The translations under genes were made by a program, and so were the position numbers. Positions 6,006-54,514 of a stretch of 64,000 nt of DNA are shown piece by piece. The notes below the pieces were generated by a model. It had not been told where the DNA came from. It saw nothing but the letters and a program-made list of their open reading frames with translations, and did not search any database. The stretch comes from Candidatus Nealsonbacteria bacterium. Its GTDB lineage: Bacteria > Patescibacteriota > Minisyncoccia > Minisyncoccales > CAZKCU01. The DNA lies in the NCBI GenBank assembly GCA_047456305.1, contig CP179888.1, positions 317,307-381,306 on the forward strand, written 5' to 3'. Position 1 is the stretch's first letter. Every line of letters starts with the position of its first letter.

Positions 6006-7607
6006 ATGATTCGTCAAGAGATAGCAAAATTAATAGAAAAATCAATAAAAGTCCTCCAAAAAGAGAAGGATTTGCCTCAATTTGAAATTCCCGAGATTGA
6101 GATTGAACATCCGGAGGAAAAAATTCACGGCGATCATGCCACAAACATTGCGATGGTAATTGCAAAGAAGGTGAGGAAGAATCCGATGGAAACAGCCAAC
6201 TTGTTAAGTTTAAAGTTTAAGGTTAAAGGTTTAAGGTACCTCGACAAAGTTGAGGTAGTCAAACCAGGATTTATTAATTTTTTTCTTTCAAAAGAATATT
6301 TACAACAGAGAATTGGAGAAATTTTAAAGAAGAGAGAGAAATTTGGTGAATTAAATATTGGTAAAGGAAAGAAGGTTCAGGTAGAATTTATTTCGGCAAA
6401 TCCAACAGGTCCTCTAACTGTCGGTAATGCTCGAGGTGGTCCTTTCGGTGATGTTTTGGGAAATGTTCTGAAAAAAGCAGGATTTAGGATAGAGAAAGCT
6501 TATTATATTAACGATTATGGAATGCAAATTTTAGCTCTTGGTCATTCTATTTTGAAAGATAGCGAAGCGAAATACAAAGGTAAATATATTGATGAACTTA
6601 CCAAAAGAATCAAAGAAAAAGAGCCCTATAAGGCAGGTGAGAGTGCAGCCAAAATTATTATTGAGAATTTTATAAAAAAAACTATAGATAAATTGAAAAT
6701 TAAGTTTGATGAATGGTATTCAGAAAATAAATTACACAGAGATTCTGAAGTTGATAAAACCTTAAAATTTTTAAAGAAGAAAGAATTGCTTTATGAAAAA
6801 GAAGGAGCAATTTGGTTCCAAAGCTCGAAATTTGGTGACAAAAGAGACAGAGTGATGGTAAAGTCCGATGGACCAAAAACCTATTTAGCCGGAGATATTG
6901 CTTATCACCGATATAAATTTGAAAAGAAGAAATTTGATAAGGTAATAGACATTTGGGGAGCAGACCATGCTGGTGATGTTGCTGGACTTCAAGCCGGGGT
7001 AGAGGCTTTAGGTTATAAAGGTAAACTTGATATTTTATTGCTCCAGTTTGTAACTATACTTGAAAAAGGGGAAAAGCTGAAAATTTCAAAAAGGAGAGGA
7101 ACTTTCGTTACTATGGATGAATTACTCCGAGAGGTAGGAGTTGATGTTGCTAGATTCTTTTTTCTCCAAAAATCAGCTAATACCCATTTAAATTTCGACC
7201 TCACTTTAGCCAAAAAACAGTCAGAGAAAAATCCGGTTTATTATATTCAGTATGCTCACGCCAGAATATGTAGTATTTTGCATAAAGCTGTTAATGTTGA
7301 ACGTCAACAAGGTTCTTCCCGGCAAGTCTTCAAACTATTAAATCATCCAAGTGAACTAGAGCTTATTAAACAACTGGTTAGGTTTCCTGAGATTGTTGAG
7401 GATACGACAAAGGATTATCAGGTTCAGAGATTGCCTCAGTATGCATTTGAACTTGCCCATCAATTTCACCAATTTTATAGAGATTGTCAAGTTTTATCAG
7501 ATAACAAAGAATTAACTGAGGCAAGATTGGCTTTAATCTCAGCCACTAAAACTGTCGTAAAAAATGTTTTAGATTTGATGGGCATTTCCGTTCCAGAAAA
7601 GATGTAA
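6006..7607 (+). CDS. argS: arginine--tRNA ligase
   Basis: 533 aa; SANPTGPLTVGNARG (HIGH-region equivalent), class I fold, DALR-type anticodon-binding C-terminus. Confidence 0.95.
   Translation: MIRQEIAKLIEKSIKVLQKEKDLPQFEIPEIEIEHPEEKIHGDHATNIAMVIAKKVRKNPMETANLLSLKFKVKGLRYLDKVEVVKPGFINFFLSKEYLQQRIGEILKKREKFGELNIGKGKKVQVEFISANPTGPLTVGNARGGPFGDVLGNVLKKAGFRIEKAYYINDYGMQILALGHSILKDSEAKYKGKYIDELTKRIKEKEPYKAGESAAKIIIENFIKKTIDKLKIKFDEWYSENKLHRDSEVDKTLKFLKKKELLYEKEGAIWFQSSKFGDKRDRVMVKSDGPKTYLAGDIAYHRYKFEKKKFDKVIDIWGADHAGDVAGLQAGVEALGYKGKLDILLLQFVTILEKGEKLKISKRRGTFVTMDELLREVGVDVARFFFLQKSANTHLNFDLTLAKKQSEKNPVYYIQYAHARICSILHKAVNVERQQGSSRQVFKLLNHPSELELIKQLVRFPEIVEDTTKDYQVQRLPQYAFELAHQFHQFYRDCQVLSDNKELTEARLALISATKTVVKNVLDLMGISVPEKM
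6204..6238. repeat. 7-nt periodic tandem array H1 inside argS
   Basis: TTAAGTT TAAAGTT TAAGGTT AAAGGTT TAAGGTA; translated LSLKFKVKGLRY. Confidence 0.75.
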
Positions 7608-7610
7608 TAA

Positions 7611-7666
7611 GGAACCGTTCGCTTCGCTCACTGTAATCGCTTCACGGTTAAAGCTTCGCGATTAAT
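7611..7666 (+). repeat. Family B repeat, copy B1
   Basis: GGAACCGTTCGCTTCGCTCACTGTAATCGC..GCGATTAAT, ends at ATG 7667. Confidence 0.7.
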
Positions 7667-8230: not shown

Positions 8231-11109
8231 ATTTTCCTAAAATTGAGAAAAAAATCCTAAAATTCTGGCAAGAAAACAAGATTTTCGAAAAACTTAAAAA
8301 GAAAAACCAAGGGAAAAAGCGCTGGTCGTTTTTGGACGGACCGATTACTGCTAACAATCCTATGGGAGTTCATCATGCCTGGGGAAGAACCTATAAAGAC
8401 CTTTTTCAGAGATACAAGGCAATGCAGGGTTTTGACCAGAGATTTCAAAACGGTTTTGATTGTCAGGGTTTGTGGGTAGAGGTAGAAGTTGAGAAGGAGC
8501 TTGGATTCAAGAATAAAAAAGATATAGAGAAATACGGCATAGAAAAATTTGTCAAAAAATGCAAAGAGAGAGTTGAGAAATATTCGAAAATTCAAACAGA
8601 ACAATCAATCCGGCTGGGTCAATGGATGGATTGGGGGAATTCTTATTACACAATGTCTGATGAGAATAACTATGCTATTTGGTATTTCCTAAAAAAATGC
8701 CACAAAGAGGGATTTTTATATAAAGGCAGAGATGTTGTTCCCTGGTGCCCGAGATGTGGGACAGCCATTTCCCAACACGAAATTTTAACAGAAGAGTATA
8801 AAGAATTGACTCACAAATCAATATTTTTCAAGTTGCCAGTCCAAAACCTAAAGAAAACTTATTTTCTTGTCTGGACAACTACTCCCTGGACATTATCAGG
8901 CAATGTTGCAATAGCTATTCATCCTGATTTTGATTATGTAAAAGTAAAAGATAAAAAAGGCGACATTTTTATCTTACTTAAAGAAAAATCTGATTTAATT
9001 GAAGCTGGAGAAATAATAGAAACATTCAAGGGCAAGAAATTAGAGGGATTTGAATACGAGGGGTTGTTTGACGAATTGCCATCTGTAAAAGAAACCTTAG
9101 GCAGCTACAAGCATTCTGTAATTCTATGGAAAGAAGTAACCAAAGAAGAAGGAACTGGTATTGTTCATGTGGCGCCCGGCTGTGGCCAGGAGGATTTTCA
9201 ATTAGCTAAAGAATTTAAACTGCCTGTTATTGACTTAACTAATGATGAAAGCAGCTACCTAAAGGGTTTTGGAGAGTTGAGTGACAAGTTTGTTGGCGGA
9301 GAAGAAGTAAGAGAATTGATTTTTGAAGATTTAAACCAAAAAGATAGAGTTTTTAAAATTGAAGGCTATAAACACCGCTATCCAATTTGCTGGCGCTGCC
9401 AGTCAGAATTGATTTTCCGCTTGGTTGATGAATGGTATATTTCAATGGCAAAGTTAAGAGAAAAACTGATGAAAATTGCCAAAAAAATAAAATGGATTCC
9501 TCCCTTTGGTCTGGACAGGGAATTGGATTGGTTAAAAAATATGCAAGATTGGTTGATTTCTAAAAAACGTTATTGGGGATTAGCTTTACCGATTTATGAA
9601 TGCCCAGACTGCGGAAACTTTGAGGTAATCGGTTCCAAAAAAGAATTAAAAGAAAAAGCGGTTAAGGATTGGCAAGAGTTTGAAGGTCATTCTCCTCACC
9701 GACCCTGGATAGATAAAGTAAAGATTAAATGTTCCAAATGTGGCAAAATAGTTTCTCGAATTCCTGATGTTGGTAATCCTTGGTTAGATGCCGGGATTGT
9801 GCCCTTCTCTACTCTAAAGTATTTTTCTGACCGGGAATTGTGGCAAAAATGGTTTCCGCCTGAATTTATTTGCGAATCTTTCCCGGGTCAATTCAAAAAT
9901 TGGTTTTATTCCCTTATTGTAATGAGTACTGTATTAGAGGAAGTTACTCCAGTGAAGACAATCTTTGGCTACGCCACAGTAGTCGATGAAAAGGGAGAAG
10001 AAATGCACAAATCCAAAGGAAATGTTATTTGGTTTGATGAGGCAGTTGAAAAAATAGGGGCTGATCTGATGCGTTGGATGTATGTTAGACAAAATCCAGT
10101 CTATAATCTAAGGTTTGGCTACAAGATTGCCAAAGAAACCCAAAGGAAACTTTTGACACTGTGGAATAGCTACACCTTTTTTGAGACGTATGTCTCAAAA
10201 AAGGAAATCCCAAATCCCAAATCCCAAATCCCAAAATCTAAAAATATCTTAGATAAGTGGATTAATTCAAGATTGAATAGGTTGATTACTCAAGTTACCC
10301 AAAGCTTAGATAATTTTGATGCTGCCAGAGCAAGTTCAGCCATTGAAGATTTCTTCATTAATGATTTATCTCTTTGGTATATAAGGAGATCAAGAAAGAG
10401 ATTTCAAAGACCAAGAAAGGAAGAAGAAAAAGATGAAGCAGCCGGTACTCTTTATTTTATTCTTTTGACTCTGGCAAAACTGATTGCTCCGATGATGCCA
10501 TTTCTGGCTGAAGAAATTTATTTGGGCTTGAAAACAAAAAACGAACCCCAGTCTATCCATCTTTGCGACTGGCCAAAATATTATGAAAAAGCAATTGACG
10601 ATAATTTAGAGGAGAAAATGAGAAAAGTTCGGGAGATTATAACTAAGGTTTTAGCTAAAAGAACTGAACTTGGAATTAAAGTGAGGCAGCCCCTACAGGG
10701 ATTAAGAATTACGAATTATAAATTACGAAGGGAGAAAGAATTACTGGAGTTGATTAAGGACGAGGTAAATGTAAAAGAAATTACTTTTGGCAAAACATTA
10801 AAATTGGATACAAAGATTAGCAAAGAGTTAAAAGAGGAGGGTCAGGTTCGAGAATTTATCCGACAAGTTCAGCAATTACGAAAAAACGCCAAACTCACCC
10901 CAAAAGATAAAATTATTATTTATTGCGAATGCCAGGAGAAACTGAAAAAAGTTTTACAAAAAAATAAAAAAGACATTTTAACAGAAACCAAGGCCAAAGA
11001 TTTTATCTTAGGAGGAAAAATTAAAAAGGCATTTAATGCGGAAAAGGAAATGCAAATCGGTCAACAAAAATTATGGTTAGGGATTAAAAAAAATCAAATA
11101 GTATGTTGA
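8221..11109 (+). CDS. ileS: isoleucine--tRNA ligase
   Basis: 962 aa; P..NNPMGVHH (HIGH), KMSKS variant (MHKSKGN), CP1 editing domain, zinc-ribbon cysteines. Confidence 0.95.
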   Translation: MSIDFPKIEKKILKFWQENKIFEKLKKKNQGKKRWSFLDGPITANNPMGVHHAWGRTYKDLFQRYKAMQGFDQRFQNGFDCQGLWVEVEVEKELGFKNKKDIEKYGIEKFVKKCKERVEKYSKIQTEQSIRLGQWMDWGNSYYTMSDENNYAIWYFLKKCHKEGFLYKGRDVVPWCPRCGTAISQHEILTEEYKELTHKSIFFKLPVQNLKKTYFLVWTTTPWTLSGNVAIAIHPDFDYVKVKDKKGDIFILLKEKSDLIEAGEIIETFKGKKLEGFEYEGLFDELPSVKETLGSYKHSVILWKEVTKEEGTGIVHVAPGCGQEDFQLAKEFKLPVIDLTNDESSYLKGFGELSDKFVGGEEVRELIFEDLNQKDRVFKIEGYKHRYPICWRCQSELIFRLVDEWYISMAKLREKLMKIAKKIKWIPPFGLDRELDWLKNMQDWLISKKRYWGLALPIYECPDCGNFEVIGSKKELKEKAVKDWQEFEGHSPHRPWIDKVKIKCSKCGKIVSRIPDVGNPWLDAGIVPFSTLKYFSDRELWQKWFPPEFICESFPGQFKNWFYSLIVMSTVLEEVTPVKTIFGYATVVDEKGEEMHKSKGNVIWFDEAVEKIGADLMRWMYVRQNPVYNLRFGYKIAKETQRKLLTLWNSYTFFETYVSKKEIPNPKSQIPKSKNILDKWINSRLNRLITQVTQSLDNFDAARASSAIEDFFINDLSLWYIRRSRKRFQRPRKEEEKDEAAGTLYFILLTLAKLIAPMMPFLAEEIYLGLKTKNEPQSIHLCDWPKYYEKAIDDNLEEKMRKVREIITKVLAKRTELGIKVRQPLQGLRITNYKLRREKELLELIKDEVNVKEITFGKTLKLDTKISKELKEEGQVREFIRQVQQLRKNAKLTPKDKIIIYCECQEKLKKVLQKNKKDILTETKAKDFILGGKIKKAFNAEKEMQIGQQKLWLGIKKNQIVC
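10206..10240. repeat. 7-nt periodic tandem array H2 inside ileS
   Basis: AATCCCA x4 (perfect) then AAATCTA; translated IPNPKSQIPKSK. Confidence 0.8.
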
Positions 11110-12113
11110 TATTTTGGATTTTAATTTTTATTTTAAGTTTAGCTTTGTTGGTAAAGTCGGCTGATTGGCTTGTTGAGAGTTCAGAGAAAATTGCGATATC
11201 TTTGAAAATTTCGCCTTTTATTATTGGGGTGACCATTGTTGCCGTTGGTACTTCTTTTCCCGAACTGGCTTCGTCTATCATCGCTGTTTTGAAAGGAGCT
11301 GGTGAGATCGTTACTGCAAATGTAATTGGTGCCAATATTACTAATATCCTTCTAGTCGTTGGTTTATCAGCAGTTTTTGCTCGAACCCTTATTGTTAAAA
11401 GAAGTTTGATTGATTTAGATGCTCCTCTTTTAGCTACTACTACTGTTTTATTCATTTTCATTATGTGGGACAGGAAAATCGTTTTTGGAGAAGGAATTTT
11501 ACTTCTGTTGGCTTTTGCGATTTATCTTCTTTACACAATTTTTCAAAGAAGAGAAGAAATTATTACTTCTGAATTAGTGGGAGTTTTACCCCGGGGAGCG
11601 AAAATTCAAATTTTACCCTCTCGAGCTGAAAGACGAAGAAAGGAAATAAAAGAAAGACCATCGAAATTGAATTTTAAAGTTTTCCTTTTCTTAATTTTAG
11701 GAATGGCTGGTTTAGTTGTTGGAGCCAATTACGCTATTGAGTCGATTGTAAATATCTCCAAGCTTTTAAAGATTTCCACTGCCTTGATAGCTATTACCGC
11801 CATGTCTTTGGGTACTACTTTACCTGAACTATTGGTTTCGGTCAGGGCGGCTTTAAAGAAAAAATATGAAATCGCTTTGGGAAATATTTTTGGTTCAAAT
11901 GTTTTTAATCTTTTAGTGGTGGTTGGAATCCCAGCTTTAATTAAACCATTAGCAATTGCTGACCTTACTTTTTCAATTGGCCTTCCGTTTTTAGTTGTTG
12001 CCACTTTGCTTTTTATTATTTCCGGAATTTCTCGAAGAATTCATATTTGGGAAGGAGCAATGTATCTCTTAATTTATATTTTATTTATCATCAAGCTCTG
12101 CGGCATATTTTAA
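11103..12113 (+). CDS. Ca2+/Na+ antiporter (CaCA/YrbG family)
   Basis: 336 aa, about 10 TM segments, two alpha-repeat motifs GTSFPEL and GTTLPEL. Confidence 0.8.
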   Translation: MLIFWILIFILSLALLVKSADWLVESSEKIAISLKISPFIIGVTIVAVGTSFPELASSIIAVLKGAGEIVTANVIGANITNILLVVGLSAVFARTLIVKRSLIDLDAPLLATTTVLFIFIMWDRKIVFGEGILLLLAFAIYLLYTIFQRREEIITSELVGVLPRGAKIQILPSRAERRRKEIKERPSKLNFKVFLFLILGMAGLVVGANYAIESIVNISKLLKISTALIAITAMSLGTTLPELLVSVRAALKKKYEIALGNIFGSNVFNLLVVVGIPALIKPLAIADLTFSIGLPFLVVATLLFIISGISRRIHIWEGAMYLLIYILFIIKLCGIF

Positions 12114-12119
12114 AGGTCG

Positions 12120-12147
12120 AATTTTAATTGTTAAATTATAAATTAAT
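12120..12147. repeat. weak 7-nt periodic AT-rich array H3 (intergenic)
   Basis: AATTTTA ATTGTTA AATTATA AATTAAT just upstream of ATG 12153; low complexity. Confidence 0.35.
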
Positions 12148-12152
12148 TATTT

Positions 12153-12524: not shown

Positions 12525-12530
12525 TTTAAG

Positions 12531-13268
12531 ATGTTCACCCATTACAGAACTCAAGGGATTTTTTTGAAAAAAGAAAATCGGGGAGAGGCCGATCAGCTTT
12601 TTACAATTTATACTAAAGATTTTGGAAAATTAGAGATTTTGGGAAGAGCTATCAGGAAAATCAAATCAAAATTAAGAGCAGGAGCCGAACTTTTTTATTT
12701 TTCAGAGATTGAATTTATTCAGGGGAAAGCCTACAAAACCCTAACCGATGCCATTTTAATTGAGAAATTTGAAAATATCAGAAAAGATTTAGAGAGATTG
12801 GGGATTTGTTATCAGATTTCAGAAGTTTTGGATAATTTAGTCAAAGGCCAAGAAAGAGATGAAAAAATCTGGCAGCTCCTAAACGAGGTTTTTAATAAAT
12901 TAAATAACCGTCAATTCTCAATTATCAATTGTCAATTGTCATATTACTATTTCCTCTGGAACCTTTTTTCTCTTTTAGGGTTTAAACCTGAGCTTTCTAC
13001 TTGCCCAATTTGCAGAGAGAAACTTTTACCCGAAACATTTCATTTTGTACCAAAAGAAGGAGGGGTAGTATGCTGGAGGTGTTTGAAAAAACTCAGCCCA
13101 GAAGAAAAAGAAAGAATAAAAGAAATAAGCGTAGGTACGGTTAAAATTTTAAGAATTTTTCTTTCAAAGAATTGGAAAATATTACCCAGACTTAAAATAA
13201 TAAAAGAAGAGAGAAAAAATCTAAAAGAGATATCAGAACTTTATCTTACTTTTTTAAAAGAAGCTTAA
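12531..13268 (+). CDS. recO: DNA repair protein RecO
   Basis: 245 aa; N-terminal OB-fold pattern and C-terminal zinc motif CPIC..CWRC. Confidence 0.8.
   Translation: MFTHYRTQGIFLKKENRGEADQLFTIYTKDFGKLEILGRAIRKIKSKLRAGAELFYFSEIEFIQGKAYKTLTDAILIEKFENIRKDLERLGICYQISEVLDNLVKGQERDEKIWQLLNEVFNKLNNRQFSIINCQLSYYYFLWNLFSLLGFKPELSTCPICREKLLPETFHFVPKEGGVVCWRCLKKLSPEEKERIKEISVGTVKILRIFLSKNWKILPRLKIIKEERKNLKEISELYLTFLKEA
12911..12945. repeat. 7-nt periodic tandem array H4 inside recO
   Basis: TCAATTC TCAATTA TCAATTG TCAATTG TCATATT; translated QFSIINCQLSY. Confidence 0.75.
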
Positions 13269-14984: not shown

Positions 14985-16352
14985 ATGACTGATTTGATGT
15001 CAAAAATTATATCTTTGTGTAAAAGAAGAGGATTTATTTTTCAATCCTCAGAGATTTACGGTGGGGTAGAGGCTCTTTGGGATTATGGGCCGTTAGGTTC
15101 GCTTTTGAAAAATAATATTAAAGAGGAGTGGTTAAAAAGATTTGTCCAAAAAAGAGATAATATAGTTTTGATTGACGGTTCAGTTTTAATGCACCCTAAT
15201 GTCTGGAAAGCTTCTGGGCATCTGGAACATTTTACTGATCCTCTTGTTGAGTGTAAAAATTGTCATTCCCGTTATCGGGCTGATTATATGACAGATGGTC
15301 GTTTTGTAAAACAGGGTAAAGCAAAAACTAAAAATCAGTGTCCTCAATGCGGCGACAAAGATTTCACTCCGCCTCGTCAATTTAATCTGATGTTCAAAAC
15401 ATTTTTGGGGCCGGTAAAAGATAAAGCCCACCAAACTTACTTAAGACCAGAGACCGCTCAATCAATGTTTACTAATTTTAAGCAAATTCAAGAGTCAATG
15501 CGCCTTAAAATTCCCTTTGGGATTGCCCAGATAGGAAGGTCTTTCCGAAACGAAATAACTACCGGCAATTTTACTTTCCGTTCCCGAGAATTTGATATTG
15601 CCGAGATTGAATATTTTGTTAAACCAGGCGCTGATGAAAAATGGTTTGATTTTTGGGTCAATGAATGGGAAAAATTCTTTTTAGATTTAGGGTTAAAAAA
15701 GAAAAATCTTCGCCGATATGAGCATCCAAAAACAGCCCTTTCTCATTATTCAAAAAAGACGATAGATATTGAATACAAATTTCCTTTTGGCTGGTCAGAA
15801 CTTGCCGGCATTGCCAATCGAACTGATTTTGATTTGAAACAACATTCAAAATATTCGGGCCGAGATTTAAGCTATTTCGATGAGGATTCTGGTAAAAGAT
15901 ATATTCCTTATGTAATTGAACCAACTTTAGGCGTTGAAAGACTTTTACTCGCTTTATTAATTGATGCTTATCAAGAAATAAAAGGCGGTCGAACAAAAAC
16001 TACTAAAGCCGCTAAAGAAACTGAAATTTTATTGAAGCTTCACAAAGCTTTAGCTCCAATAAAAGTTGCTGTTTTACCTTTGGTGAGGAATAAACCAGAA
16101 TTGGTGAAAAAAAGCAAAGAAGTTTATCAACTTTTAAAGCCTCATTTTACTTGTCAATATGATGAACTCGGCTCAATTGGTCGTCGCTATCGACGAACGG
16201 ATGAGATTGGATGTCCTCTTGCAATTACGATTGATTTCGAAACTTTAAAGCAAAAAGATGTTACCATCCGTGATCGCGATACAATGAAGCAGGAAAGAGT
16301 AAAGATTTCAGATTTAATAAATGTTTTAAAAGAGAAATTAAATACTCAATGA
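14985..16352 (+). CDS. glyQS: glycine--tRNA ligase (homodimeric type)
   Basis: 455 aa; class II motifs (YLRPETAQ, GRSFRNE, GVERL). Confidence 0.95.
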   Translation: MTDLMSKIISLCKRRGFIFQSSEIYGGVEALWDYGPLGSLLKNNIKEEWLKRFVQKRDNIVLIDGSVLMHPNVWKASGHLEHFTDPLVECKNCHSRYRADYMTDGRFVKQGKAKTKNQCPQCGDKDFTPPRQFNLMFKTFLGPVKDKAHQTYLRPETAQSMFTNFKQIQESMRLKIPFGIAQIGRSFRNEITTGNFTFRSREFDIAEIEYFVKPGADEKWFDFWVNEWEKFFLDLGLKKKNLRRYEHPKTALSHYSKKTIDIEYKFPFGWSELAGIANRTDFDLKQHSKYSGRDLSYFDEDSGKRYIPYVIEPTLGVERLLLALLIDAYQEIKGGRTKTTKAAKETEILLKLHKALAPIKVAVLPLVRNKPELVKKSKEVYQLLKPHFTCQYDELGSIGRRYRRTDEIGCPLAITIDFETLKQKDVTIRDRDTMKQERVKISDLINVLKEKLNTQ

Positions 16353-16397
16353 ATCTTCGATTCATTTCGATCTTCTATAAATTAAAAATTTATCTCG

Positions 16398-17663
16398 ATG
16401 TATAAAAAAACCACTCTTAAAAACGGTTTGAGAATTATTACTGTTCCCTTGCGAAACACCCAGGCAATAACTGTTTTGATATTAGTAGCTACTGGTTCGA
16501 AGTATGAAAAAAAAGAGATAAATGGTATTTCTCATTTCTTAGAACATATGGCTTTTCGGGGAACAAAAAAACGTCCCCAGACCTTAGACATTGCCAAAGA
16601 ATTAGATAGGGTAGGCGGCCTTTATAATGCCTTTACCGGTAAAGAATTTATGGGATTTTGGGTAAAAGTTGATTCAAAGCATTTTGACTTAGCAACCGAT
16701 GTTTTATCTGATATGATTTTTAATTCTCTCTTTAAAGAAAAAGAAATTGGAAAGGAAAAAAAGACGATTATAGAAGAAATTAATATGTATTTAGATACTC
16801 CCCAGAGTTATGTTTTGGAACTTTGGGAAAAACTTTTATACGGAAACCAACCAGCTGGCTGGATGATTGCCGGTCAAAAGGAAACGGTAAAAAGAATTTC
16901 CAGAAAAAATATTTTGGATTATTTTAGAAAACAATTTAGTGCAGAAAATGTAGTCGTTTCCTTAGCTGGAAATTTTAAAACTAAAGAAGCCGTTTCTAAA
17001 ATAAAAATTTTTTTTGAGAAATTCAAAAAGACCAAAACTTTATCCAAAAAACCGGTAATTGAAAGACAAAAATCTCCTCAGATTTTACTTCAGACAAAAG
17101 AAACCGATCAGACCCATTTAACCTTAGGGGTCCGAGCTTATAACATTTTTAAACCCGAAAGATACCCCCTCGCTGTTTTAGCAAACCTCTTGGGAGGAAT
17201 TATGAGTTCCCGTCTTTTTATTGAAATTAGGGAAAAGAGAGGAATGGCTTATTATATTAAGACTATTCCTGAAAATTATAGTGATACAGGATATTTGGTA
17301 ACTCATGCTGGAATTGACAATAAAAGAACGGAGGAGGCAATAAAAATCATTTTGAAAGAATATAAAAATTTAAAAGAGAAAAAAGTTCCGAAAGAAGAAC
17401 TTCAGAAAGTCAAAGACAATATTAAGGGCCATCTTTATTTAGGTTTGGAAACCTCTGATGCCTGGGCTAGTTATCTTGGCGTTCAGGAAATTTTAAAAAG
17501 GAAAATTTCTACTCCCGCTCAAGAATGCAAAATGATTGATAAAGTCAGCCAAGATGATATTCTAAAAGTAGCCAGAGATATTTTTCAACCCAAAAAATTA
17601 AATTTAGCTCTCATCGGCCCATTTAAGGATAAAAATCAGTTCCAAAAATTATTAAAGCTGTAG
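16398..17663 (+). CDS. M16 family zinc peptidase (insulinase-like)
   Basis: HFLEHMAF inverted zinc motif (HxxEH); 421 aa. Confidence 0.8.
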   Translation: MYKKTTLKNGLRIITVPLRNTQAITVLILVATGSKYEKKEINGISHFLEHMAFRGTKKRPQTLDIAKELDRVGGLYNAFTGKEFMGFWVKVDSKHFDLATDVLSDMIFNSLFKEKEIGKEKKTIIEEINMYLDTPQSYVLELWEKLLYGNQPAGWMIAGQKETVKRISRKNILDYFRKQFSAENVVVSLAGNFKTKEAVSKIKIFFEKFKKTKTLSKKPVIERQKSPQILLQTKETDQTHLTLGVRAYNIFKPERYPLAVLANLLGGIMSSRLFIEIREKRGMAYYIKTIPENYSDTGYLVTHAGIDNKRTEEAIKIILKEYKNLKEKKVPKEELQKVKDNIKGHLYLGLETSDAWASYLGVQEILKRKISTPAQECKMIDKVSQDDILKVARDIFQPKKLNLALIGPFKDKNQFQKLLKL

Positions 17664-17668: not shown

Positions 17669-17727
17669 TAGGCGAAGAGAACTTCGTTCTCTTCTTCACC
17701 TTCGCTTTCGCTGCGCGAAAGCTCGGT
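17669..17727 (+). repeat. Family A repeat, copy A3 (forward, most complete)
   Basis: TAGGC-GAAGAGAAC TTC GTTCTCTTC-TTCACCTTCGC-TTTCGC TGC GCGAAA-GCTCGGT; ends 2 nt before ATG 17730. Confidence 0.8.
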
Positions 17728-18761: not shown

Positions 18762-19459
18762 GCGCTTTCTATATTATAAGTACTCCAATTGGGAACCTCG
18801 AAGATTTATCATTTAGAGCCCTCCAAATTTTAAGGGGGGTTGATTTAATTTTGTGTGAAGACACAAGAGTGACCAAAAAATTATTGAGTCATTATCAAAT
18901 AAAAACTCCAACCCTAAGTTATCATCAACATTCCAAACTAAAAAAAGTTGAATACATTATTCAACTTTTAAAAGAAGGTAAAAATCTGGCTTTGGTTTCT
19001 GATGCCGGCACCCCGGGAATTTCCGACCCCGGGAATTTATTAGTTAATGAAGTGATTAATAGATTAACAGATAGAGTAAAAATAGTACCGATTCCCGGGC
19101 CTTCGGCAGTAACGGCGGCAGCTTCTATTTCTGGCTTTCCAATGGATAAATTTATTTTTATGGGTTTCCCGCCAACAAAAAGAAAAAGGAAGAAATTTTT
19201 TGAGGAGGTGGTAAATTCAAAATATCCCGTGATTTTTTATGAGTCCCCCTACCGAATAATAAGAACCTTAAAGGAGCTAAGCTCCTTCTTCCTGCAAATT
19301 TGTGGTCAAATTCGTGAAAATTCGCGAAAAATAGTTGTTTGTCGCGAATTAACTAAAAAATTTGAAACAATTTATCGGGGGAAAATTGAAGAGGTAATAA
19401 AACAAATTGAAAAAGACGAAATAAAAGGAGAATTTGTAATTATTGTAGAAGGAAAATAG
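18758..19459 (+). CDS. rsmI: 16S rRNA (cytidine1402-2'-O)-methyltransferase
   Basis: ISTPIGNLEDLS, CEDTR, DAGTPGISDPG, CRELTKKFE motifs. Confidence 0.9.
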   Translation: MSAFYIISTPIGNLEDLSFRALQILRGVDLILCEDTRVTKKLLSHYQIKTPTLSYHQHSKLKKVEYIIQLLKEGKNLALVSDAGTPGISDPGNLLVNEVINRLTDRVKIVPIPGPSAVTAAASISGFPMDKFIFMGFPPTKRKRKKFFEEVVNSKYPVIFYESPYRIIRTLKELSSFFLQICGQIRENSRKIVVCRELTKKFETIYRGKIEEVIKQIEKDEIKGEFVIIVEGK

Positions 19460-21703: not shown

Positions 21704-22534
21704 ATGTTAATCGACACTCACGCTCATTTAAATTTTAATGCCTATAAAAAGAATGTGAAGGAGATTATTAAACGTTCTTTAGATAATAATATCTGGATGA
21801 TAAATATTGGTTCTCAATATGAGACAAGTAAAAGGGCAGTGGAAATAGCAGAAAAATACGAAAAAGGCGTATACGCTGCTATTGGACTTCATCCGATTCA
21901 TTTGGCTAAAGGAATTTTCAAGACAAAAATAGACAAAGAAGAAATTGCATTTGAGACAAATGAAGAGAACTTCGATACTTCAAACTATAGAAGTTTGGGC
22001 AGTTCCTCGAAAGTGGTGGCCATTGGTGAAATCGGTCTTGATTATTATTACCGGCCGAAAACCAAAACCAAACTTGGACAATTCAAAAATAAACAAAAAG
22101 AAGTATTTCTGAAACAACTAGATTTGGCTCAGGAATTGAACTTGCCAGTTATTTTTCACTGTCGAGTGGCTCACGGCGAGTTATTAGAAACATTAAAGTT
22201 TAAAGTTTCAAGTTTCAAGTTTCGGGGCGTCATCCACTGTTTTACCGGAAACTGGATGCAGGCTAAACAATATTTAGAAATGGGATTTTACCTTGGATTT
22301 AACGGAATAATTTTCAAATTAAATTTAGACGAGATAATAAAAAAAACTCCCTTGGAAAGAATTTTAATTGAGACTGATTGTCCTTATCTTGCTCCACCAC
22401 CTTTTGAAAACCAAAGAAACGAACCTCTTTATGTAAAATATATCGCTCAGAGAGTCGCTGAAATTAAAAATCTTAGTTTTGAAGAAATATCTAAAATTAC
22501 TACTAAAAATGCTAAAAAATTATTTAAAATTTAA
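21704..22534 (+). CDS. tatD: TatD family metal-dependent DNase/hydrolase
   Basis: IDTHAHL start, GEIGLDYY, FHCR, ETDCPYL motifs. Confidence 0.85.
   Translation: MLIDTHAHLNFNAYKKNVKEIIKRSLDNNIWMINIGSQYETSKRAVEIAEKYEKGVYAAIGLHPIHLAKGIFKTKIDKEEIAFETNEENFDTSNYRSLGSSSKVVAIGEIGLDYYYRPKTKTKLGQFKNKQKEVFLKQLDLAQELNLPVIFHCRVAHGELLETLKFKVSSFKFRGVIHCFTGNWMQAKQYLEMGFYLGFNGIIFKLNLDEIIKKTPLERILIETDCPYLAPPPFENQRNEPLYVKYIAQRVAEIKNLSFEEISKITTKNAKKLFKI
22194..22221. repeat. 7-nt periodic tandem array H5 inside tatD
   Basis: TAAAGTT TAAAGTT TCAAGTT TCAAGTT; translated LKFKVSSFKF. Confidence 0.75.
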
Positions 22535-25043: not shown

Positions 25044-25097
25044 TAGGCGATGAGGACTTCGTCCTCATCTTCACCTTCGCTTCTGCGGAAGCTCGGT
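25044..25097 (+). repeat. Family A repeat, copy A4 (forward)
   Basis: TAGGC-GATGAGGAC TTC GTCCTCATC-TTCACCTTCGC-TTC TGCG GAA-GCTCGGT; 27 nt before ATG 25125. Confidence 0.8.
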
Positions 25098-36765: not shown

Positions 36766-38721
36766 TCATTTCGCCTTTAATTTTTCTATACTTTCCGATA
36801 GTATCTGGCAATAAAGATTGAGACCGATTGAGTTTATGTTTCCTGATTGCTCTTTGCCCAAAATATTACCTCCTCCTCTCATTTCTAAATCTTTTAAAGC
36901 AATTCGATAACCTGAACCTAATTCCTCAGCTTCTTTTAAGGCCTGAAGTCTTTCTTCTGCCAGGGGAGAAAGTCTTTGAGGATATAAAAAGTAAGAGAAG
37001 GCCTGAATATGGGAACGGCCGATTCTTCCCCGGATTTGATAAGCTTCTGCCAGACCCAACCTTGTTGAATCAGCAACAATTAAAGTATTCACATTGGGCA
37101 AATCAAGGCCATTTTCAATAATAGTAGTCGCGACTAAAACATCAATTTTTTTATTCTGGAAATCTTCCATTACTTTGACTAATTCCTTTTCTTTTAATCT
37201 TCCATGAGCTATTCCAAATTTTGCTTTTGGAGATAAGTTTTCTAAAAACCTTTTTACCATTTCAATTGTTTCTATTCTATTATGCAAATAATAAATTTGG
37301 CCGCCTCTTTCAATTTCAGTTTCAATTGCTTCTTTAATTATTTTATCCTTGAAAGACAAAATAAAAGTTTTAACTGGCAATCTGCCAACCGGTGGAGTTT
37401 GAATCAGGCTAATATCTTTTAAGGAAGAGAGGGCCATATATAAAGTTCGGGGGATAGGGGTTGCAGAAAGGCTTAAAATATCTAAAGAGGCCCTTATTTT
37501 CTTTAATTTTTCTTTTTGCCTAACTCCAAATCTTTGTTCGTCATCAATAACCAATAGTCCCAAATTTTTAAATTCGACATCAGAAGACAAAATTCGGTGA
37601 GTGCCCACCGCTATATCAACTTTCCCATTTTTTAAATCATTAATTATTTCTCTCTGCTTTTTTTTGGATTGTAACCTGGATAGCATTGCTATTTTAACTG
37701 GTAAATTTTTTAATCGTCCCTTAAAATTTTGAAAATGTTGAGAAGCTAAAATAGTAGTTGGACAAATCATGGCTGCCTGATAGCCAGAATTAACTACCTT
37801 TATCATTGCCCTCAAAGCTACCTCCGTCTTTCCAAATCCAACATCGCCGCAAACAATTCTATCCATTGGTTCTGGCTTCTCTAAATCCTTTTTTATATCT
37901 TCAATTGCCTGGGATTGATCCGGAGTCTCTTCAAATTGGAAAGAAGAATTTATTTGGAGATTTATCTCATCTTCTGATAAATAAGGAGGACGAGTGACAA
38001 TTTCTCTAATAGCCGCAACCTCTAAAAGTTCTCTGGCTAATTTTTCAACTTCTTCCTTGATTTTTCTTTTTGTTCTCTGCCAGAGAGGAGAGCCGAGCCG
38101 GGAAATTTTTGGTTTAATAAAACCAATGTAGCGAGATAATTTTCTTTCTAATCCTACTGGAACATACAATTTATCTCCCTGAGCATATTCGAGTTGGTAA
38201 TATTGTTGATTGTTAATTGCTAATTGTCGATTGTATATTCCTATGCCGTGGTCTAAATGAACTAAATAATCTTTGGGCTTTAATCCCTTTAAATCGGAAA
38301 ATAGTTTTTGGGATTTTAATTTCTTTTTTAAAATCTCTTTTGATTTCTTCTCATCTTCAACCCTTATATCTAAAGATTCAATATTCTCAATTTGATTTCC
38401 AAAAAATTCAAAACGAACAGCTAAATTTAGATTTACTGGAAAAACATCAATAATTCCTCCTCTCTGGGAAAATTCTCCGGGTTCTGAAACTCTCAAAACT
38501 TTTTCATATCCCATCTCGTCCAATTTTCTTAAAAATTGAGAAAAATTGTAAATTTGATTTCTTTCTAAATATAAAGTATTGTCTTCAAAAAAAGATTGAG
38601 TTTTCTTGGCTTCTAAAATTTTTCTTAGATTTTCCTCAAACCAAAAAACAGGCTTTTCTAAAAAATAGGGGGTAAGCCCAACAATTAAGACTTTTTCTAA
38701 TCTTAATCTTGACAAATCCAT
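36766..38721 (-). CDS. mfd: transcription-repair coupling factor, compact form
   Basis: 651 aa; UvrB-like GEFSQRGGIIDVFP, RNAP-interaction region LVHLDHGIGIY, helicase motifs GDVGFGKTEVA, DDEQRFG, GRIGRS. Confidence 0.85.
   Translation of the reverse strand: MDLSRLRLEKVLIVGLTPYFLEKPVFWFEENLRKILEAKKTQSFFEDNTLYLERNQIYNFSQFLRKLDEMGYEKVLRVSEPGEFSQRGGIIDVFPVNLNLAVRFEFFGNQIENIESLDIRVEDEKKSKEILKKKLKSQKLFSDLKGLKPKDYLVHLDHGIGIYNRQLAINNQQYYQLEYAQGDKLYVPVGLERKLSRYIGFIKPKISRLGSPLWQRTKRKIKEEVEKLARELLEVAAIREIVTRPPYLSEDEINLQINSSFQFEETPDQSQAIEDIKKDLEKPEPMDRIVCGDVGFGKTEVALRAMIKVVNSGYQAAMICPTTILASQHFQNFKGRLKNLPVKIAMLSRLQSKKKQREIINDLKNGKVDIAVGTHRILSSDVEFKNLGLLVIDDEQRFGVRQKEKLKKIRASLDILSLSATPIPRTLYMALSSLKDISLIQTPPVGRLPVKTFILSFKDKIIKEAIETEIERGGQIYYLHNRIETIEMVKRFLENLSPKAKFGIAHGRLKEKELVKVMEDFQNKKIDVLVATTIIENGLDLPNVNTLIVADSTRLGLAEAYQIRGRIGRSHIQAFSYFLYPQRLSPLAEERLQALKEAEELGSGYRIALKDLEMRGGGNILGKEQSGNINSIGLNLYCQILSESIEKLKAK
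38200..38234. repeat. 7-nt periodic tandem array H9 inside mfd
   Basis: ATATTGT TGATTGT TAATTGC TAATTGT CGATTGT; translated (minus strand) NRQLAINNQQY. Confidence 0.75.
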
Positions 38722-39295: not shown

Positions 39296-39355
39296 CCAGA
39301 GCACATAAATATTATTTATGTGCTCGGCCGAGCACATATGTTATATGTGCTCTGG
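39296..39355. repeat. Family D hairpins D2 and D3 (tandem, mutually complementary)
   Basis: CCAGAGCACATAAAT ATT ATTTATGTGCTCGG then CCGAGCACATAT GTT ATATGTGCTCTGG; overlaps the last 13 codons and the stop of pth. Confidence 0.7.
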
Positions 39356-39906
39356 GCTTTTCCTAAACCTGATTTTAAAGAAAGCTCAATCGCCTCAACC
39401 GTTTTTTTAATCACTTCTTTAACTATCTTTTCTTCTTCTTTGTTAAATTTTTGAAGAACAAATTTTTCGGGATTTTTAGGTTTGCCAAACTTAGGTTGAA
39501 TGCCAATTCTAAACCTAACAAAATTTTTAGTTTCAATTTCTTTAATTATTGATTTCACTCCTTTGTGGCCAGCCGAACCACGATTTTTGACAATTCGGAT
39601 TTTACCCAGGGGCAAATCAATGTCGTCGTGAATTACTAAAACATTTGACATTTGACACTTAACACTTAACACTACTTTTTTTACTGCTTGGCCAGAGAGA
39701 TTCATAAAAGTAAGCGGTTTTGCGAGTAAAACTTTTTGGCTGTTAATCTCACCTTTACTAATTTCAGCCTGTAATTTTTTTATATTTTTCCAATCCGAAA
39801 ATTTGTCAATTGTTAATTGTAAATTGTCAATTGTCATAAAGCCAAGATTGTGGCGAGTTTTTTGAAATTTTTCTCCGGGATTACCCAGACCAAGGATAAT
39901 TCTCAT
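39316..39906 (-). CDS. pth: peptidyl-tRNA hydrolase
   Basis: LGLGNPG..TRHNLGF, MNLSG, GSAGHKG motifs. Confidence 0.9.
   Translation of the reverse strand: MRIILGLGNPGEKFQKTRHNLGFMTIDNLQLTIDKFSDWKNIKKLQAEISKGEINSQKVLLAKPLTFMNLSGQAVKKVVLSVKCQMSNVLVIHDDIDLPLGKIRIVKNRGSAGHKGVKSIIKEIETKNFVRFRIGIQPKFGKPKNPEKFVLQKFNKEEEKIVKEVIKKTVEAIELSLKSGLGKAQSTYNICARPST
39642..39676. repeat. 7-nt periodic tandem array H10 inside pth
   Basis: CATTTGA CATTTGA CACTTAA CACTTAA CACTACT; translated (minus strand) VVLSVKCQMSN. Confidence 0.8.
39800..39834. repeat. 7-nt periodic tandem array H11 inside pth
   Basis: AATTTGT CAATTGT TAATTGT AAATTGT CAATTGT; translated (minus strand) TIDNLQLTIDKF. Confidence 0.8.
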
Positions 39907-51606: not shown

Positions 51607-51615
51607 CATTAAATA

Positions 51616-53178
51616 ATGACTGCCTCAAAAATCCTTCTTTATTTTTGTCTTTCCTTCATTGGAGGAATTTTTTTAAATTCATTTTTCACTCCGTCCATAA
51701 TTTTTCTATGGCTGGGGTTAACTTCAGGACTAATTTTAATATCAATTTTTTGGCAATATAAAAAAGCGGTTATTATTGGTTTTTGTCTTTTGTTTTTGGT
51801 TTTTGGAATTTGGCGCTACCAAATTAAAGAATTGCAGATTGCAAATAGCAAATTGCAAATTTACAATAATGGGGAAGAGATTACTACTTTAATTGGGACA
51901 GTTTCTGCTGAGCCAGATATTCGAGAAACAAATACTAAACTTATAGTTAAAACAAATAAAATTTTAACAGAGAACGGTTCTCTGTTAATTAGAGAGAAGA
52001 TTTTGGTTACCACTTGGAGATATCCGGAATATCAGTATGGCGATAAATTAAAAATTACTGGAAAGTTAGAAGCTCCAAAGATTTTTGAAGATTTTAACTA
52101 CAAAGATTACCTATTTAAAGAAGGAATTTATTCAGTAATAAATTTTCCCAAAATTGAATTAATTGAGAAAAATCAGGGAAACTTTATCTATACTAAGATT
52201 CTTAATTTCAAAAATAAATTAAGAAAAAGTATTTATCAAAATCTTTCTCCGCCCCAGAGTTCGATTTTAGGGGCGATGATTTTGGGCGATAAAAGAAAGA
52301 TTTCCGAGAATTTAAAACAAAAATTAAATATTGCTGGAGTGAGGCACATTACGGCGATTTCCGGTATGCATATTATGATTCTTTCTGGGGTTTTAATGTA
52401 TTTAGGCATTTTTTTGGGATTATATAGAGGCCAGGCTTTTTATTTTGCTATAACTTTGCTTTCGCTTTTTATTATTATGGTTGGGGCGCCAGCTTCAGCA
52501 ATTAGAGCCGGAATAATGGGTGGGCTTTTTCTTTTGGGCCAAAAATTGGGAAGGTTGTCCTCAAGTTCTCGAGCCATAGTTATGGCAGCAACAGTAATGT
52601 TAGCTGCAAATCCTTTGCTTTTAAAATCAGATGTTGGATTTCAACTCTCATTTTTGGCCGTAATGGGAATAATTTATTTGATGCCTATTTTCAGAAATTG
52701 GATTTCATCTCCACCGCCAAAAAATGTTAAAAAATTTGTCTATCATCTTTATAATTTTCGTTATTATTTTTTCTCAATTATTTTATTAAAAAATCCTGCG
52801 TTCCAAAACATAGCAGCCATGACTTTATCCGCTCAAGTTTTTACTTTGCCAATTCTGATATATAATTTCGGGAGAATTTCTTTAATAGCTCCAATTACTA
52901 ATATTTTAATTGTTCCTTTACTGCCGGCTATTATGGTTTCAGGATTTATTTTTGGCCTATCTGGAATAATTTTTCAACCTTTGGGTTTTGTTCTTTCTTG
53001 GCCGACCTGGTTATTATTAACTTATCTGGCAAAAATAGTAGATTGGTTCTCGAGCATTCCTTTTGCTTCTTTAACTTTAGAAATTTCTTGGATTTGGCTG
53101 ATAATTTTTTATTTAATCTTGGGCTACTTTGTTTGGCGATTACAAGAGAAACAAAAATTAAAATTTTTAAACTATTAA
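51616..53178 (+). CDS. comEC: DNA internalization competence protein ComEC/Rec2 (membrane domain only)
   Basis: 520 aa polytopic; OB/DUF4131-like N-terminus and competence domain (GVRHITAISGMHI). Confidence 0.8.
   Translation: MTASKILLYFCLSFIGGIFLNSFFTPSIIFLWLGLTSGLILISIFWQYKKAVIIGFCLLFLVFGIWRYQIKELQIANSKLQIYNNGEEITTLIGTVSAEPDIRETNTKLIVKTNKILTENGSLLIREKILVTTWRYPEYQYGDKLKITGKLEAPKIFEDFNYKDYLFKEGIYSVINFPKIELIEKNQGNFIYTKILNFKNKLRKSIYQNLSPPQSSILGAMILGDKRKISENLKQKLNIAGVRHITAISGMHIMILSGVLMYLGIFLGLYRGQAFYFAITLLSLFIIMVGAPASAIRAGIMGGLFLLGQKLGRLSSSSRAIVMAATVMLAANPLLLKSDVGFQLSFLAVMGIIYLMPIFRNWISSPPPKNVKKFVYHLYNFRYYFFSIILLKNPAFQNIAAMTLSAQVFTLPILIYNFGRISLIAPITNILIVPLLPAIMVSGFIFGLSGIIFQPLGFVLSWPTWLLLTYLAKIVDWFSSIPFASLTLEISWIWLIIFYLILGYFVWRLQEKQKLKFLNY
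51830..51864. repeat. 7-nt periodic tandem array H12 inside comEC
   Basis: AATTGCA GATTGCA AATAGCA AATTGCA AATTTAC; translated ELQIANSKLQIY. Confidence 0.75.
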
Positions 53179-53200
53179 AAAATAAGATAAAATAAAAGAT

Positions 53201-54514
53201 ATGACTAAAAAGGTTTGGTTAATTTCAGTTAATATGGGTTATGGGCACCAGAGGACGGCTTATCCTCTTAAAAATTTGGCTTATGAGGAGAAAATTATTA
53301 ATGCTAATGACTATCAGAGAATTCCCAAAAAAGACAGGGTAATTTGGGAAACTACCAGAAAATTTTATGAATTTATCTCTAATTTTAAAAGAACTCCCCT
53401 CCTTGGAAATCTGGTTTTTGCTATTTTCGATACTTTTCAAAAAATTTTAAGTTTCTATCCAAAAAGAGACTTATCAAAACCTAATTTTCAGTTAAAACAA
53501 AACTATTCTTTAATAAAAAAAGGATGGGGAAGGGATTTTGTTGAGAAATTAAAAATTAAAAATAAAAAATTAAAAAGGAATTTACCCCTCATTTCTACTT
53601 TTTTTACTCCAGCTTTTATGGCCGAATTTTTTAATTATCCAGACGAGATTTTTTGCGTTGTCTGTGATGCTGATATTTCCCGGAGCTGGGTCCCTTTAAG
53701 ACCAAAGAAAAGCAAGATTAAATATTTTGCTCCGACTGAAAGAGTAGTTGAAAGATTAAAACTCTATGGTGTAAAAAAAGAGAATATTTTTTTGACAGGA
53801 TATCCCTTACCCCTGGAAAATATTGGGGGAGAAAATACGGAAATTTTAAAAGAGGATTTGAGAAATCGGCTTTTAAATTTAGATCCTCAGAGAAAATATT
53901 TTAAAAAGTATCAGGTCTTAATTGAAGAAAATTTGAGAAAACTACCCGAAAAATCTGACCATCCCTTAACATTAATGTTTTCTGTTGGTGGAGCCGGTGT
54001 TCAAAAAGAAATCGGAATTAAAATTGTGAATGGTTTAGCTAAAAAAATCGAAGATGACGAATTGAAAATAATTTTAACAGCTGGTATTAGAGAAAAAGTT
54101 AAAGAATATTTTAAAAAGAGTATTGAAAAATTAGGCTTAGAAGGTTATTTAGGACAAAACATTGAGATAATCTTTGAAAGAGATATTGAAAGCTATTTTC
54201 AAAAATTTAATCTGGCCTTAAGAAAAACTGATATTTTATGGACAAAACCATCGGAACTCTCTTTTTACTCTGCTTTAGGTCTACCTATCATTATTGCACC
54301 GCCCGTTGGCTCGCAAGAGGAATTTAATATGAGGTGGCTTTTAAAATCCGGTTTTGGAATCTTACAAGAAAATCCAAATTATATAAGAGAATGGCTTTTT
54401 GATTGGCTGGAAAAAGGCTATTTGGCCGAAGCCGCCATGCAAGGATTTATCGAAGGCGAAAAATTAGCAACTTTTAATATAAAAAATATAATTAAAAAAT
54501 GTCCTGGATTTTAA
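53201..54514 (+). CDS. GT28/MGDG-synthase-like glycosyltransferase
   Basis: N-terminal GYGHQR; C-terminal TKPSELSFYSALGLPIII..GSQEEFN resembles the YpfP/MurG-type donor-binding motif. Confidence 0.5.
   Translation: MTKKVWLISVNMGYGHQRTAYPLKNLAYEEKIINANDYQRIPKKDRVIWETTRKFYEFISNFKRTPLLGNLVFAIFDTFQKILSFYPKRDLSKPNFQLKQNYSLIKKGWGRDFVEKLKIKNKKLKRNLPLISTFFTPAFMAEFFNYPDEIFCVVCDADISRSWVPLRPKKSKIKYFAPTERVVERLKLYGVKKENIFLTGYPLPLENIGGENTEILKEDLRNRLLNLDPQRKYFKKYQVLIEENLRKLPEKSDHPLTLMFSVGGAGVQKEIGIKIVNGLAKKIEDDELKIILTAGIREKVKEYFKKSIEKLGLEGYLGQNIEIIFERDIESYFQKFNLALRKTDILWTKPSELSFYSALGLPIIIAPPVGSQEEFNMRWLLKSGFGILQENPNYIREWLFDWLEKGYLAEAAMQGFIEGEKLATFNIKNIIKKCPGF
53544..53578. repeat. A-rich 7-nt periodic array H13 inside the glycosyltransferase gene
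   Basis: AGAAATT AAAAATT AAAAATA AAAAATT AAAAAGG; low complexity, so weaker than the other arrays. Confidence 0.45.

Follow-up and report, generated by a model that had tools for sequence, protein, structure and literature searches.

Short tandem arrays of heptanucleotides were found in the reading frames of essential and other conserved genes in a 64,000-nucleotide (nt) stretch of DNA from Candidatus Nealsonbacteria, a member of the Candidate Phyla Radiation (CPR, or Patescibacteria). This stretch, hereafter the window, has a G+C content of 34% and carries most of its genes on the + strand. It contains 11–14 period-7 tandem arrays, compared to ~0.03–0.07 expected from shuffled sequences, each consisting of a 7-nt unit repeated head-to-tail beyond the chance length for the genome, and at least ten different heptamer units occur among them. 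The excess is real, strongly non-random and acts at the DNA level. We consider it somewhat probable (about 0.55) that these are microsatellite-type heptanucleotide arrays arising in place, which are locally seeded, homogenised by unit-offset copying and filtered by frame, stop codons and peptide tolerance, with no dedicated function, and that the lineage prone to them comprises Nealsonbacteria and neighbouring Parcubacteria. The arrays are an unusual, coding-region and length-neutral form of the known bacterial 7-nt repeat bias.

Direct reading and Tandem Repeats Finder placed the main arrays all at period 7. With a strict cut-off of at least four units and at least 85% self-match at lag 7, eight arrays were obtained at period 7 against 0.03 expected from 30 dinucleotide shuffles, and the window yielded none for periods 6 and 8–30. 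When the self-match was relaxed to 75–80%, 11–16 arrays were detected at period 7, compared to 0–4 at periods 6 and 8–15 and none in the window at period 21. A preliminary description of the arrays, made from the bare letters of the window, had named a similar array count in shuffled controls or the lack of an excess of period 7 over its neighbours as evidence against it, and neither was seen. Within open reading frames (ORFs), the 11 arrays observed were reduced to 1.6 (maximum 4) by protein-preserving shuffling of synonymous codons and to 0.07 by shuffling of codon order. Because the synonymous shuffle loses most arrays, the signal sits in the DNA and is not the shadow of a peptide or of codon bias. 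The same arrays recur in independent assemblies (NCBI, JGI, ENA and Logan). Exact look-ups of three window proteins gave no match, but a planted or edited sequence is rejected in view of this recurrence and of a public Nealsonbacteria protein identical to the window Pth.

Close relatives were gathered by protein searches and subsequent retrieval of their contigs, and the resulting loci are designated by L-numbers. The LeuRS of the window, used as a query against a genome collection, returned no close relative, the top match having 58% identity, and the window Pth is 100% identical to a protein annotated from a Candidatus Nealsonbacteria metagenome-assembled genome. The leuS gene of L169 aligns with that of the window without gaps over 2,567 nt at 92.3% nucleotide identity.

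The eleven main arrays of the preliminary description were borne out in position and unit by direct reading and Tandem Repeats Finder, and their host genes by Pfam, which gave ArgRS, IleRS, RecO, TatD, LeuRS, a POR/IOR-type alpha subunit, Mfd, Pth and ComEC, together with a DUF6938 protein. On the + strand, the argS array (6204–6238; TTAAGTT/TAAAGTT/TAAGGTT) encodes residues 67–78 in the N-terminal domain of ArgRS. The ileS array (10205–10240; residues 662–674) is a perfect run of the stop-free unit AATCCCA ×4.4, directly adjoined in coding DNA by a perfect hairpin with a 13-bp stem and a 4-nt loop (10175–10204). It is followed along the strand by the arrays of recO (12910–12945; TCAATTN ×4.6; residues 127–139) and tatD (22193–22223; TAAAGTT TAAAGTT TCAAGTT TCAAGTT). 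Two sites lie in leuS, of which site 2 (23340–23375; residues 269–280) holds AATCTNA ×5; site 1 (23233–23267; residues 233–244) had been taken for a simple heptamer array and is indeed heptamer-based, but two heptamers, TTCAAGT and TCAAAGA, alternate there to give a period of 14 nt (2 × 7). The array in the gene of the POR/IOR alpha subunit, iorA (26229–26273; residues 370–383), contains AACTAAN ×6, and comEC carries AATTGCA ×4.6 (51829–51864; residues 72–83). On the – strand, with units given for the coding strand, the mfd array (38199–38234; ACAATNR) encodes residues 163–174 in a loop of the CarD/TRCF RID domain, and pth has arrays at site 1 (39800–39837; ACAATTG; residues 25–36) and site 2 (39640–39676; AGTGTTA/AATGTCA; residues 77–89).

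The weaker candidates fared unevenly. The A-rich array near 53544–53578 is real (+ strand, 53542–53578; AAAATTA ×4.4), but it is not intergenic as had been thought, since it lies within the DUF6938 ORF (53201–54514) and encodes residues 115–126. The array claimed at 12120–12147 fails every threshold used. Two arrays had been overlooked, both on the + strand, namely a second, weak one in ileS (10697–10729; ATTANGA), at which L169 has a perfect AAAATCA ×4.7, and a weak T-rich period-7 stretch in a membrane segment of comEC (51776–51815), which is possibly compositional. A further weak array, CAAAANY, is found in a folD-like ORF (31689–31717, + strand), and the palindrome CAGAGGTCGGACCTCTG occupies this place in L169. 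Altogether, 13 of the 14 arrays lie within ORFs and none exceeds 42 nt; when scored as maximal lag-7 segments, 11 of the 14 measure 28–34 nt and none is longer. The relatives' loci also hold arrays outside long ORFs. The host ORFs are all intact and lie on both strands. It is true that every array is in frame, but this is a statement about survivors. All three codon phases are represented among the array starts, and the lengths are not multiples of 21 nt.

The arrays leave the length of the protein largely unchanged. Length is constant in nine of the 11 site comparisons (including both Pth sites, both LeuRS sites, the first IleRS site and RecO), and differs between the window and L169 at the second IleRS site, by 2 residues, and in iorA, by 5 residues. 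The Pth segment from FMNxSG to HDD, which contains site 2, is 20 residues long in every one of the 10 distinct genes that bear an array, and likewise in most orthologues without one; the array-free orthologues span 13–34 residues, which indicates that site 2 tolerates length change. For Pth, an alignment of 18 sequences gave an AlphaFold model too poor for use (mean pLDDT, the model's own confidence score, of 41.6), and alignment to solved Pth structures was used instead, in which site 2 is free of gaps and site 1 shows one single-residue gap in one of two alignments. At both array sites, the LeuRS segments match the length of those in Firmicutes, spirochaete and other CPR LeuRS. Comparison of the first IleRS array and its adjoining hairpin with IleRS of T. 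thermophilus gave one gap each way and no net length change, and RecO is of identical length in the window and L169. Alignment confirms the suspicion that the arrays of pth and leuS lie in variable segments whose length they do not alter, and the same holds for IleRS and RecO. As length is unchanged and the units look locally seeded, the arrays are not insertions, and an origin from an inserted or mobile cassette is ruled out. The earlier suggestion of slippage-prone microsatellites retained only in frame comes nearest to the evidence, but is incomplete in view of this constancy of length.

Comparison with close relatives further indicated how the units change. The recO array, TCAATTN in the window, has as its counterpart at this site in L169 ACAACTT ×4.9, with register and length unaltered, and the substitutions are common to all units, the mark of concerted evolution. 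When leuS of the window is compared with that of L169, the sole island of low identity is site 2, where L169 carries ordinary sequence. In iorA, the window has six AACTAAN units (42 nt) compared to 57 nt in L169, made up of eight AATTGAA units and a phase slip of 1 nt; this looks like a gain of two units rescued by one extra base that restored the frame, and is the sole case resembling unit gain. Variants within arrays sit in blocks of adjacent units, with 28 change points compared to 51.5 expected, an arrangement that is only suggestive because lag-based detection favours such blocks.

A heptamer array is read through all three frames, so that a perfect array needs a unit free of TAA, TAG and TGA in any circular reading. 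Indeed, the unit is circularly stop-free in all 15 perfect coding arrays (15/15), and the mean number of mismatches is 2.2 in arrays whose consensus unit contains a stop, compared to 1.3 in those that are stop-free. The single mismatch is the exact base that breaks an in-frame stop in six arrays, and the tatD unit turns from TAAAGTT to TCAAGTT (A-to-C) just where TAA would enter the frame. These observations point to some force that pushes units towards identity and is opposed by purifying selection. In a separate observation, tatD (21704–22534) is absent between a metG-like gene and leuS in the otherwise syntenic L169.

In a set of 83 Pth genes, drawn from the window, from metagenome loci and from close relatives, arrays of period 7 are confined to the two sites known from the window, and no array of period 5, 6, 8 or 9 was found in these genes at any position. 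Site 2 carries at least nine units (AATTTTC, AACTTAC, GGAAATT, AATACAA, AATGTCA, AAAATTA, AATCTNA, AGTTTCA and ACTCAAA), which share one register and run into conserved Asn-Leu codons (AAT-TTA) at the 3' edge. Three units are known at site 1, where L081 and L095 differ from the ACAATTG of the window; the L095 unit, AATTTTC, is identical to the codons conserved for Asn-Phe-Pro in genes that lack an array, and a stage of two units is seen in L086. Site 1 of the window differs at 1 base in 35 from that of a relative whose protein is 66% identical, and the flanks have several synonymous differences. One relative, L165, retains the site 1 peptide with three synonymous changes that erode the periodicity, which goes some way towards, without fully matching, the pattern of a peptide kept without its periodicity that the preliminary description had held to speak against its own claim. 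Arrays at the two Pth sites co-occur, with both present in 5 genes, a single site occupied in 1 and 4, and neither in 41. The array-bearing genes cluster patchily in one clade of a neighbour-joining tree, the resolution of which is too poor for gains and losses to be counted.

Among 121 LeuRS of relatives (65–93% identity), 7-residue-periodic peptides are present in 28 at site 1 and in 36 at site 2, and other lags gave 0–3 cases, except for 7 at lag 10 of site 2. Strict arrays have a density of 1.25 per 10 kb in the window, compared to 0.49 in CPR-rich Pth loci and 0.06 in the mostly Firmicutes LeuRS loci, in which two of the eight arrays belong to one Shapirobacteria leuS. In the Shapirobacteria leuS of L046, AGATCTC arrays at 11943–11972 and 12096–12127 both encode one identical peptide, and L097 likewise has two arrays of the same unit, GATTCAA, at 1846–1879 and 2011–2046, the members of such pairs being separated by ~150–170 nt within a single gene. 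L161–L164 all share the mfd array of the window unchanged. Identical units (such as AATTTTC, AACTTAC, AAAATCA and AATCTNA) reappear across genes and lineages. The sharing of units between neighbouring genes, as in tatD and leuS or mfd and pth, was considered but not taken as evidence of copying, since near matches are expected from 14 rotations and strand choices combined with AT-rich, stop-free constraints.

GC-rich palindromes replace or interrupt arrays in the same protein segments of relatives. At Pth site 2, L163 carries the hairpin CTACGCG-gccgggt-CGCGTAG (7+7+7) and L112 a G-rich insert inside an array, and a near-palindrome of 23 nt was found in L153. At the mfd site, L165 and L167 have palindromes instead of the array, namely a hairpin with a 14-bp stem and a 16-nt palindrome, respectively. 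In leuS site 1 of L172 (10707–10755), two 21-nt hairpins (7-bp stem and 7-nt loop) flank exactly one CAAGTTC unit inside an array, with a common stem, CCTGCCT/AGGCAGG, and differing 7-nt loops. The CAATTTC array of L171 leuS (about 10040–10075) is split by a 35-nt GC-rich insert. No hairpin nested in an array is present in the window, where only one adjoins the ileS array. Perfect hairpins are ~two- to four-fold more frequent in the window than in shuffles, and those with stems of at least 10 bp ~3–4 times. Three palindrome families, CCTGCCTGCCGGCAGGCAGG, CTGTCGG..CCGACAG and CCGAGCACATA..TATGTGCTCGG, recur in distant loci and different genes and have copies in the window.

We propose that the arrays form when a 7-nt word from local, often conserved codons spreads over ~30–34 nt. 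Candidate seeds would be AAT-TTA, which encodes Asn-Leu, at the 3' edge of Pth site 2 and, at Pth site 1, AAT-TTT-CC (Asn-Phe-Pro) and ATT-GAC-AAT (Ile-Asp-Asn). The word may spread through pairing or copying that is displaced by one unit, in a slipped-strand misalignment resolved as templated correction or conversion and not as an indel, so that adjacent units would overwrite one another at a fixed total length. Selection would then purge frameshifts, stops and untolerated peptides, and the survivors would recur in a few indel-tolerant surface segments, the encoded 7-residue-periodic peptides being a by-product. We infer misaligned templated synthesis or repair as the molecular mechanism, the misalignment-and-correction step being drawn from general knowledge of slipped-strand and templated mutagenesis. 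The arrays may be scars of repair or templated synthesis, as had been suggested.

Several points weigh against such in-place homogenisation. The sharp size mode at ~28–34 nt is not what simple stepwise slippage predicts, and a scan of ~0.8 Mb revealed no perfect array with five full units. Precursors of two or three units are scarce, in that 13 perfect two-unit duplications were found compared to 5.8 expected, most of them internal to arrays. The wholesale unit differences between close relatives could reflect recombination of alleles or one-step rewriting in place of gradual conversion. In addition, Pth arrays are strictly limited to two sites although other Pth segments also vary, and the near base-for-base conservation of Pth site 1, synonymous positions included, could reflect selection on DNA or peptide.

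Part of this evidence is what one would look for if a dedicated small-element system were at work, in which machinery handling 7-nt modules, perhaps by way of an RNA or single-strand intermediate, would write heptamer arrays as well as GC-rich hairpins as a CPR counterpart of the cyanobacterial arrays. GC-rich palindromes at or inside the same sites in L172, L171, L163, L112, L165, L167 and L169, the palindrome families that recur across distant loci and different genes, the sharp 30–34-nt size mode and the reappearance of units in different genes and lineages all agree with it. We nevertheless hold such a system to be unlikely, because no candidate enzyme gene was seen beside any array, the units seem to be seeded locally and not imported, and the constraints of being stop-free and AT-rich can account for unit recurrence, as can a common tolerance of compact proteins for the shared sites. 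The nesting statistics are also weak, with two perfect hairpins in arrays compared to an estimated ~0.4 expected. For the narrower proposal that arrays and 7+7+7-type palindromes are two outputs of one DNA-writing or mini-element process in 7-nt modules, shared in principle with the cyanobacterial system and at work within essential genes of ultra-small CPR genomes, our expectation is likewise low, tolerance of the proteins in compact genomes being the simpler account of the shared sites. Also unlikely is that the arrays are functional cis-elements whose periodicity itself is selected, for DNA shape or flexibility or as a ~32-nt platform for a nucleoid protein or RNA binding, with any unit sufficing. 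The same gene sites are used across lineages despite unit turnover, the arrays are near-perfect and sometimes deviate only to dodge a stop, their size mode is narrow and the synonymous positions of Pth site 1 are conserved, all as such elements would have it. However, the arrays have no common motif, follow no positional rule inside genes or relative to gene starts and ends, are not tied to promoters or terminators and are patchily distributed even within one clade, and in close relatives the array is missing (leuS site 2 in L169) or its place is taken by a palindrome or ordinary sequence. The DNA-level binding arrays considered in the preliminary description are disfavoured by the variation of units among sites and close relatives and by this exchange of arrays for palindromes or ordinary sequence, and unit diversity rules out a single sequence-specific binding site altogether.

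Selection acting on the protein in favour of heptad-like peptides, from which the DNA periodicity would follow through codon bias, would explain why some of the ancestral residue pattern is kept (MTIDNLQLTIDKF compared to MAIDNIVKNLDVTF in solved Pth) and why L165 preserves its peptide as periodicity erodes. It is, however, very improbable and was rejected on the synonymous-codon shuffle, which leaves a mean of 1.6 arrays compared to the 11 observed; moreover, a 7-nt period puts each unit in all three frames, which no protein constraint demands, lag 21 has no separate signal of its own and the relatives' loci hold arrays outside long ORFs. Chance, low-complexity composition or an assembly artefact is scarcely credible and, for the main arrays, refuted. 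The genome is AT-rich, and 12120–12147 and 51776–51815 may be compositional, but 8–11 arrays stand against 0.03–0.07 expected without any excess at neighbouring periods, and their presence in independent assemblies speaks against an artefact.

Heptanucleotides have been described as the most abundant class of long simple sequence repeats in most prokaryotic genomes, for which polymerase slippage was proposed, and the sole proposal found for the 7-nt step is that the replicative polymerase holds this length of DNA (Mrazek 2007, as cited in PMC4679880 and PMC4692102). According to the same sources, most repeats in prokaryotic coding regions have a unit length that is a multiple of three, and studies of heptamers dealt mainly with those between genes (PMC4679880, PMC4692102). 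The arrays reported here resemble these repeats in the over-representation of 7 nt relative to other unit sizes and in the diversity of units, but differ in lying in essential genes with ~4.5 units, unchanged protein length and recurrence at orthologous sites. Copy number changes among the relatives only in iorA, the Pth, LeuRS, RecO and mfd arrays keeping their length. That 7-nt tandem repeats are over-abundant in bacteria has been on record since 1990 and 2007, to our knowledge without a tested mechanism, and no description of such arrays in CPR bacteria was found in the literature searched. The heptanucleotide tract of neuO, a phage-borne accessory gene, has 3–53 copies varying by strain and is out of frame in 66% of genomes (PMC13001214). 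It likewise places a 7-nt unit inside a coding sequence so that three frames are translated in turn; in contrast, the copy number here is fixed and the genes are intact and of housekeeping type. A phase-variable contingency locus of the neuO type is ruled out by the fixed copy number, the intact ORFs and the essential hosts.

[quoted passage not shown] Hairpin elements of ~21–27 nt are said to be embedded in them (Elhai 2008 and Mazel 1990), and arrays reportedly lie even inside the essential RNase P RNA gene (Vioque 1997). Several tandem heptamer families in one genome are shared with the window, and the nested hairpin elements have their match in the relatives L172, L171 and L112. Unlike the cyanobacterial arrays, those described here occur in a CPR host, have AT-rich units, lie in ORFs in 13 of 14 cases and do not exceed 42 nt, and we know of no account of cyanobacterial heptamer arrays that overwrite protein-coding segments without a change in length.

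Other systems share single features. The TAACTGA repeats of Beggiatoaceae, Cyanobacteria and Bacteroidetes consist of one fixed unit, lie mostly just upstream of start codons and were proposed as a regulator site (PMC4679880). Tandem TAACTGA was not found in the window; a short tandem array of it occurs at 2816–2841 of L149, an unrelated metagenome contig. In the heptad operators bound by ribbon-helix-helix proteins such as omega of Inc18 plasmids, a conserved WATCACW is repeated in promoter regions, whereas the units here vary between arrays and are located inside genes. WATCACW occurs 11 and 9 times on the two strands of the window, counts that are uninformative as no expectation was computed. 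Tandem repeats in Borgs are reported to create new intrinsically disordered protein regions (PMC9879509). Borg repeats are likewise fast-evolving, locally arising, perfectly tandem and inside genes. In the coding repeats of Borgs, the unit length is a multiple of three and residues are added, whereas the unit here is 7 nt and existing residues are replaced without lengthening. Rickettsia palindromic elements, one family of 100–150-bp insertions, lie in frame in conserved genes of a reduced genome. They show a similar tolerance of short in-frame repeats, which is relevant to the GC-rich palindromes described here, but the heptamer arrays differ in not being insertions.

The location of the arrays in essential reading frames means that indels are filtered out, exposing length-neutral homogenisation at unit offsets. 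The arrays are the fastest-diverging patches in otherwise conserved genes, which bears on alignment, phylogeny and strain typing of CPR bacteria, and they indicate that DNA-level processes can dictate stretches of 10–13 residues in housekeeping proteins. The link to nested GC-rich mini-palindromes, if real, would extend the cyanobacterial phenomenon to a second and very distant phylum.

Further palindromes were noted in the window and its relatives. Perfect hairpins with 9–13-bp stems, mostly AT-rich, occur in coding DNA at 10175–10204, 18943–18969, 34677–34699 and 51964–51988, of which one adjoins the ileS array and another lies 100 nt from the comEC arrays. The palindrome CTGCCTGGCGGCAGGCAG at 4134–4151 (ORF 4003–4350, minus strand) belongs to the CCTGCCTGCCGGCAGGCAGG(TTT) family, which is found inside genes of distantly related CPR loci (L091, L095, L098, L141, L160 and L172) and looks like a dispersed mini-palindrome family. 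At the 3' end of pth and just past it (39299–39352), nested palindromes of the form GAGCACATA..TATGTGCTC-GGCC-GAGCACATA..TATGTGCTC lengthen the Pth C-terminus (NICARPST) compared to relatives; their family, CCGAGCACATA..TATGTGCTCGG, is also present in L082, L166 and L167. CTGTCGG..CCGACAG was located in dprA of L163 (13854–13876) and L167 (15502–15528) and in iorA of L169 (13225–13251), and its occurrence in different genes of different relatives suggests mobility or repeated generation.

Near-identical hairpins stand right after stop codons at 17674–17694, 25049–25069 and 57136–57156, as GAAGAGAAC-nnn-GTTCTCTTC twice and GATGAGGAC-ttc-GTCCTCATC once, and could be terminator-like or a dispersed element family. 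The folD-like ORF (31440–32315) has a GC-rich in-frame insert of ~50 nt at 31499–61 that is absent in L169 and holds a strong hairpin, GTCCTCCCACCCGCCGAAGGGCGGGAGGGCC (–23 kcal/mol), amid a genome of 34% G+C. Other insertions specific to the window relative to L169 are found at 16325–16416 (intergenic), 32435–32512 (a PAP2-like ORF) and 25820–25935 (iorA), the last of which has two small hairpins at a place where L169 carries another palindrome.

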